64,000 nt of DNA from Escherichia coli O127:H6 str. E2348/69. Its GTDB lineage: Bacteria > Pseudomonadota > Gammaproteobacteria > Enterobacterales > Enterobacteriaceae. The notes beneath the pieces were generated by a model that was not told the origin of the DNA, searched no databases, and saw nothing but the letters and a program-made list of their open reading frames with translations. Position 1 is the stretch's first letter, and the number at the start of each line of letters is the position of its first letter. The position numbers and the translations under genes were made by a program. Positions 62,391 through 62,707 of the stretch are shown piece after piece. The DNA is taken from NCBI RefSeq assembly GCF_000026545.1, contig NC_011601.1; one strand, written 5' to 3'.

Positions 62391-62707
62391 ATGATCGTGC
62401 AAAAAGAGCTGGTTGCTATTTACGATTATGAGATCCCTGTACCTGAAGATCCGTTTTCCTTCAGACTTGAGATCCATAAATGCTCTGAATTATTTACAGG
62501 TTCCGTCTATCGACTGGAGCGATTCCGGCTACATCCAACATTTCATCAACGTGATCGAGAAGATGCCGACCACTAATAAATGGTGCGTTGATTTATATAA
62601 GAGATGAGTTTATTGATGAGCAGAAATTACGAGGTGAATCACATGAAACAGTAATAGCAATTTTTAATTATGAACTACAGAATATATTCAACCAAGAAAT
62701 AAAATAA
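62391..62707 (+). pseudogene. yehK: yehK, frameshifted as sequenced (expected ~105 aa)
   Basis: Frame 0 reads 60 aa then ...DADH-stop at 62574-62576; the -1 frame continues LINGALIYIRDEFIDEQKLRGESHETVIAIFNYELQNIFNQEIK to TAA at 62705-62707; a single-base loss near GACCACTAA (62568-62576) would explain it. Confidence 0.6.

Follow-up and report, generated by a model that had tools for sequence, protein, structure and literature searches.

Why does yehK of Escherichia coli O127:H6 strain E2348/69 occupy two consecutive reading frames, and is the break real? The gene lies in a stretch of 64,000 nucleotides (contig NC_011601.1 of assembly GCF_000026545.1; referred to here as the window, at its full length), between yehI (58704-62330; DUF4132) and yehL (from 63409; AAA ATPase) in the annotation of an identical record; the list of open reading frames (ORFs) likewise ends yehI, with a product of 1,208 aa, at 62330. 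A reading of the window from sequence alone had proposed that yehK was frameshifted by the loss of a single base at about 62571 and, having seen a second homopolymer-type indel in the nearby yehC gene, had set systematic assembly error beside genuine decay as an explanation. Comparison with other alleles and other assemblies leads us to conclude that yehK of the window is very probably a genuine, vertically inherited pseudogene. Its parts are as follows.

62391..62707, plus strand: yehK pseudogene of 317 bp (intact length 318 bp), matching K-12 yehK at about 95% identity with a single gap
62391..62576, plus strand: residual 5' ORF, comprising 60 native YehK residues, His61 and a stop
62567..62572, plus strand: lesion site CGACCA, as placed by alignments with other alleles
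62574..62579, plus strand: tandem premature stops TAA TAA, created by the frameshift
62573..62707, plus strand: untranslated remnant in the -1 frame, former codons 62 to 105 and the stop

The sequence at 62560-62584 is GAAGATGCCGACCACTAATAAATGG (GAA GAT GCC GAC CAC TAA TAA ATG G). The ORF that begins at ATG 62391 ends at the TAA at 62574-62576, which is followed directly by the second TAA at 62577-62579, and its product is 61 aa long. The remaining 44 codons, up to the normal stop, lie in the -1 frame, which is open over 62573-62707 and translates as LINGALIYIRDEFIDEQKLRGESHETVIAIFNYELQNIFNQEIK before terminating. Between them, the two adjacent frames span the length of an intact homologue and are joined where, relative to intact orthologues, there is an indel, and both the division of a 105-codon gene into 60 plus 45 codons and the switch point were correctly placed by the sequence-only reading.

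The K-12 allele, comparison with which had been suggested as a check, is intact (318 bp, 105 aa) and has CCC where the window has CC. When the 317-bp and 318-bp genes were aligned, there were 13 mismatches and one gap, the latter falling at K-12 GCTGACCCGCTAA versus window GCCGA-CCACTAA. In codons, K-12 reads GCT GAC CCG CTA ATA; the window reads GCC GA- CCA CTA ATA with the gap inserted and GCC GAC CAC TAA TAA as it stands. One C has thus gone from the CCC run, leaving CC at 62570-62571, and the deletion is flanked by two substitutions (C for T at 62567 and A for G at 62572). When the gene was repaired in silico, it aligned with YehK from end to end. The in-frame alleles of other lineages (CE10, MIN6, WP2-W18-ESBL-10, PCP07014, and E1) all read GACCCGCTAA, which is the in-frame ancestor of the site. 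The in-frame sequence that had been put forward earlier, GACCCACTAA, does exist, in strain LF82. In yehK of the window, no uninterrupted frame of some 105 codons spans the invariant block NDALIYIRDE; the block lies in the -1 frame and carries a D65G change. On these grounds, the gene appears to be a pseudogene of the YehK family and not a functional member of it.

The same lesion is widespread. The whole window is identical, in reverse orientation, to E2348/69 record CP059840.2 (NZ_CP059840.2), in which PGAP, the annotation pipeline of NCBI, lists yehK as "protein YehK, frameshifted" at exactly the window coordinates. The deletion and the flag recur in "variety 2" (LT827011.1) and in EPEC1 (LT903847.1), an engineered derivative; both are complete assemblies that stem from E2348/69, and both are identical across 1.6 kb. 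We compared the region with 5,426 complete E. coli genomes by megablast, using allele-specific queries short enough that any match must contain the exact junction, and obtained the following counts.

Deletion 36-mer: 925 of 5,426 genomes
K-12 in-frame 37-mer: 3,310 of 5,426 genomes
In-frame GCC GAC CCA: 1 of 5,426 genomes (LF82)
GCC GAC CCG: 0 of 5,426 genomes

Roughly one complete E. coli genome in six therefore has the deletion, and the carriers include O25b:H4-ST131, NU14, S88, IHE3034, APEC O18, NRG 857C, ATCC 11775, and E2348/69 itself, all of which we take to be phylogroup B2 strains. In a public protein collection, at least 1000 contigs and 1,822 index blocks contained the exact 61-aa product, and its sources were NCBI, ENA, JGI, and Logan assemblies from varied projects made by varied methods. 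One contig (GCA_053076565.1) was 100% identical to the window over 2.6 kb, and two others were 99.9% identical. RefSeq flags yehK as frameshifted in every deletion-bearing record examined, so the lesion was already known, and the kind of event is not new.

Several lines of evidence suggest that what was broken was a working gene. A protein search turned up YehK homologues in Escherichia and Shigella only, and the full-length protein (about 105 aa) was found in proteins named by their sources as those of E. fergusonii, E. marmotae, and E. albertii. Because full-length YehK is conserved in this way, the in-frame state is ancestral. An alignment of 16 YehK sequences had 36 invariant residues, the longest invariant run being N64-E73 (NDALIYIRDE), followed by D76 and E77; this run, which includes the invariant D65, lies just downstream of the break, and the deletion thus removes the best-conserved part of YehK. 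Between divergent intact alleles, pairwise Nei-Gojobori ratios of non-synonymous to synonymous substitution (dN/dS) were 0.06-0.18, and in the last 45 codons of intact alleles there were 6 to 7 synonymous differences versus 0 to 1 non-synonymous differences. The low dN/dS values and the excess of synonymous changes imply that yehK encodes a protein under purifying selection, apparently an orphan confined to Escherichia.

The part of the gene that lies beyond the premature stops shows a different pattern. We put the missing C back in silico and set the frameshifted alleles against that of LF82, which is in frame. The remnant in the window differed from LF82 by D65G, R78Q, C94Y, and E105K, with no synonymous change; in other frameshifted lineages the original stop codon had been lost and the remnants had acquired I70T, E83K, and a single synonymous change. 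In two deletion-bearing contigs there was an extra T insertion (ACAGTA to ACATGTA) at about yehK position 262 (about 1461 of the contig), 82 bp downstream of the first indel, which represents further decay of the remnant. Summed over the frameshifted lineages, 7 changes in the remnants were non-synonymous or stop-loss and 1 was synonymous, with 1 indel besides, versus about 1:7 (non-synonymous to synonymous) in intact lineages; for the remnant versus the intact pattern, Fisher's exact test gave p = 0.01, a value that is descriptive only, the events being few and counted by hand. Within the limits of these small hand-counted numbers, the untranslated part of the gene shows relaxed selection, and the pattern fits an old inactivation with the downstream part drifting.

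A few alleles retain the full frame on nearly the same backbone. LF82 and CP078583.1 read GACCCACTAA (GCC GAC CCA), which is the frameshifted allele plus one C; this C is the sole difference between LF82 and NRG 857C over 1,880 bp of the locus, and in CP078583.1 the LF82-type allele sits on flanks that are 2.4% divergent. Either the deletion allele arose directly from the LF82 allele, or the LF82 allele arose from the deletion allele by regaining a C. Isolates FCI17, FCI29, and FCI23, all Colombian and all from a single project, read GACCAGCTAA (GCC GAC CAG; P61Q), which is equivalent to the frameshifted allele plus one G or to the ancestor with a single C-to-A change, and FCI17 is nearly identical to deletion-bearing strains around yehK. 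A homology-guided indel polisher would yield exactly GACCAGCTAA from GACCACTAA, and the FCI alleles may be polishing artefacts. Finally, eight contigs from metagenomes or sequencing runs have the ancestral GCTGACCCG (GCT GAC CCG) on the common frameshifted backbone. The in-frame alleles that we located are as follows.

1045-1362 of the retrieved stretch: in-frame yehK of LF82, the +C allele
111-428 of the retrieved stretches: in-frame yehK of FCI17 and FCI23, the +G allele

The rare in-frame alleles could be precursors, true revertants or, in the FCI assemblies, polishing artefacts, a question without effect on the verdict for yehK of the window.

Taken together, these results suggest that one base was lost at GAC-CCG/CCA in the ancestor of a large lineage, giving the present GAC CAC TAA TAA. 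Translation would now end after 61 residues, such that the NDALIYIRDE..DE block and the C-terminal helix are no longer made, and the downstream remnant would have drifted since the loss. We infer that the 61-aa stub has lost the function of YehK. Some points count against such an account of inherited inactivation. The artefact question was judged on assembled sequences, and the in-frame alleles that stand one mutational step away on the same backbone could leave the order of events, and any reversions, ambiguous. In addition, the 60 codons upstream of the break have 1 non-synonymous and 3 synonymous changes in the frameshifted lineages, numbers that are tiny but compatible with some constraint on the stub.

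The upstream pattern bears on the possibility that the gene is a functional truncation or a split gene, in which the function of YehK is kept by the 61-aa product, either by itself or together with a C-terminal piece whose translation restarts at TTG 62588. The 61-codon ORF is intact, with the few changes just described, in every deletion-bearing allele sampled, and a 39-codon ORF does start at TTG 62588, 9 nt past the second stop. However, no Shine-Dalgarno-like motif was seen before this TTG, and the invariant core of the family (N64-E73, D76, and E77) lies downstream of the stop, in a segment that has gathered non-synonymous changes (among them D65G and I70T, both of which alter invariant residues) and that has lost its original stop codon and acquired a second indel. 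Because the core lies downstream and is decaying, we consider a functional stub or a two-piece gene unlikely.

We give a slim chance to the idea that loss of YehK was itself selected and is lineage defining, with YehK acting alongside the neighboring yehI/yehLMPQ gene set and with LF82 and CP078583.1 (+C) and FCI17, FCI29, and FCI23 (+G, P61Q) as true revertants. If this were so, yehK would be toggling on and off under changing selection.

It could also be supposed that yehK is not a real protein-coding gene and that the indel is neutral, falling in a non-coding sequence. There is no Pfam or NCBIfam family for YehK or for either fragment, the homologues come from one genus, and an AlphaFold2 model built from the 16-sequence alignment had a mean predicted local distance difference test (pLDDT) score of 42, too low for a meaningful fold search. 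Set against this, the 105-codon frame is conserved, with its invariant residues, in proteins named as those of four Escherichia species, and differences in the C-terminal half are nearly all synonymous. On the strength of this selection analysis, we reject the idea that yehK is not a gene as very improbable. An exact 20-mer of yehK, CCGTTTTCCTTCAGACTTGA, had 0 matches in a collection of species-representative genomes, a result that we treated as uninformative, relying on the protein matches for the outgroups; the columns of this 20-mer are invariant in all of the yehK alleles fetched, including that of type strain ATCC 11775, and the zero probably reflects a shortcoming of the search tool or its stored data and not biology. 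The literature on yehK yielded only antisense transcription in the yehI-yehK intergenic region and the zor-orz paper (PMC2887945).

According to the technical explanation, homopolymer runs were miscalled both in yehK, with its missing C, and in yehC, with its extra A, and the two genes are intact in the organism. The companion lesion that had been reported in yehC, which encodes the fimbrial chaperone of the yehABCD chaperone-usher operon, is indeed there.

49347..50022, minus strand: yehC pseudogene, A7 for A6 at 49528-49534 (+1 insertion)

The window reads GATAAAAAAATGACT, versus GATAAAAAATGACT in K-12, which has A6 at this point, and the chaperone is truncated after about 163 residues. As in yehK, the gene is inactivated by the gain or loss of one base in a mononucleotide run; unlike the yehK lesion, this one is a +1 insertion, is confined to the E2348/69 lineage and is therefore much younger. 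An 80-base query centered on the run matched 4,919 genomes, only 4 of them at ≥99% identity (that is, an exact match including A7), whereas all of the others sampled, including carriers of the yehK deletion such as APEC IMT5155, had a 79-base match. The location of both lesions in homopolymer runs (CCC to CC and A6 to A7) would suit miscalling, and in some assemblies neighboring "frameshifted" genes do look like sequencing noise (e.g., yehI, yehK, and yehM of AH19D088). Nevertheless, a three-base run is no typical error hotspot, two substitutions accompany the yehK deletion, the decay of the remnant is lineage specific, and the A7 of yehC is common to the E2348/69-derived assemblies. Far from being absent from independent assemblies of the strain and its relatives, the yehK deletion recurs in all three E2348/69-derived complete assemblies, in the 925 complete genomes and in contigs from many projects and platforms, which argues for genuine decay, the other of the two explanations offered at the outset. 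Since the yehK deletion is lineage-wide and the extra A of yehC is found in 4 genomes, the two lesions are independent events of different ages with no common technical cause, and a pair of homopolymer indels in one region does not here amount to evidence of systematic error. Assembly error in yehK of the window is excluded for practical purposes, and we assign the technical explanation as a whole a very small probability. A literature search on yehC in E2348/69 found nothing useful.

Programmed recoding, in which a -1 ribosomal frameshift or transcriptional slippage restores full-length YehK, can be dismissed with near certainty: the downstream part does lie in the -1 frame, so that the geometry permits it, and two different in-frame variants lie nearby in sequence space, but the junction, C GAC CAC TAA, contains neither a slippery heptamer of the form X XXY YYZ nor a long homopolymer on which RNA polymerase could slip, the downstream frame is decaying, and the in-frame ancestor had no such signal. 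Programmed frameshifting was accordingly rejected on sequence alone, no slippery site having been found at the junction.

Several other features of the window adjoin these genes. The yehK-yehL intergenic region contains a single-copy zor-orz type I toxin-antitoxin locus.

62889-62978, minus strand, and 63224-63297, plus strand: zor-orz type I toxin-antitoxin locus

The minus strand of this locus has a 29-aa hydrophobic ORF, MDTLTQKLTVLIAVLELLVALLRLIDLLK, and the match to the OrzO-P antitoxin RNA scored 91.5 bits against a gathering score of 60. The zor-orz family has been placed between yehI and yehL in O157:H7 and is absent from K-12 (Fozo et al. 2010, PMC2887945). The length of the yehK-yehL intergenic region varies: other deletion-bearing strains have 779 bp, compared with 701 bp here and 306 bp in K-12. 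The stop codon of yehK marks the start of an imperfect palindromic element of about 125 bp.

62707-62830: imperfect palindromic element, with nested inverted repeats at 62718-62732/62810-62824 and 62755-62769/62772-62786

This element, which had a weak, sub-threshold Rfam match to V_AS5, is long or short depending on the strain, and in EC476 the yehK frame runs into it. It presumably resembles the enterobacterial repetitive intergenic consensus (ERIC), or intergenic repeat unit, consensus. Upstream of yehI, between yehC and yehK, is a second gene with a DUF4132 domain.

54898-58694, plus strand: DUF4132-domain gene, listed by PGAP as "frameshifted" here and as "frameshifted; internal stop" in K-12

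We assume that this gene corresponds to the molR/yehH region, and it looks like an older pseudogene common to several lineages. Farther away, an IS4-like ISEc13 transposase gene occurs twice, under a single protein accession, and there is a decayed cluster for sugar metabolism, the coordinates of the latter having been converted from the CP059840.2 record.

44194-45567, minus strand: ISEc13 transposase gene, separating yehA from rcnB (neighbors in K-12)
2837-4210, plus strand: ISEc13 transposase gene, adjoining mdtA and near an Ibs-family toxin gene at 2582-2638
25640-27841: decayed sugar-metabolism cluster with an FGGY-family kinase (frameshifted, internal stop), a partial short-chain dehydrogenase/reductase (SDR) oxidoreductase and a partial periplasmic-binding protein

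The significance of the inherited inactivation of yehK is small beyond annotation quality. Annotators of E2348/69 should leave yehK and yehC as frameshifted pseudogenes and refrain from "correcting" them. The yehK lesion marks a large E. coli lineage whose members share it, and that in yehC belongs to the E2348/69 lineage alone. A conserved protein that one large lineage has dispensed with also provides a natural knockout for searches for its function.

The pseudogene can be placed with respect to three sets of known alleles. Like K-12 yehK, which encodes uncharacterized protein YehK (WP_000636925.1), it lies between yehI and yehL, and its first 60 codons are collinear with those of K-12; it differs in being one base shorter, with stops at codons 62 and 63 and a C-terminal 44 residues that are untranslated. 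The in-frame LF82 gene (WP_000636916.1, a full 105 aa) is identical to the common frameshifted allele except at the lesion site. The third set comprises the yehK genes of AH19D088, NRG 857C, ATCC 11775, MS 16-3, and A37, each of which is 317 bp long and flagged as frameshifted by PGAP. These five share with the window the 1-bp deletion, the surrounding 36-mer, the length, and the flag, whereas the E2348/69 lineage has four extra changes in the remnant and has D20 where they have E20.
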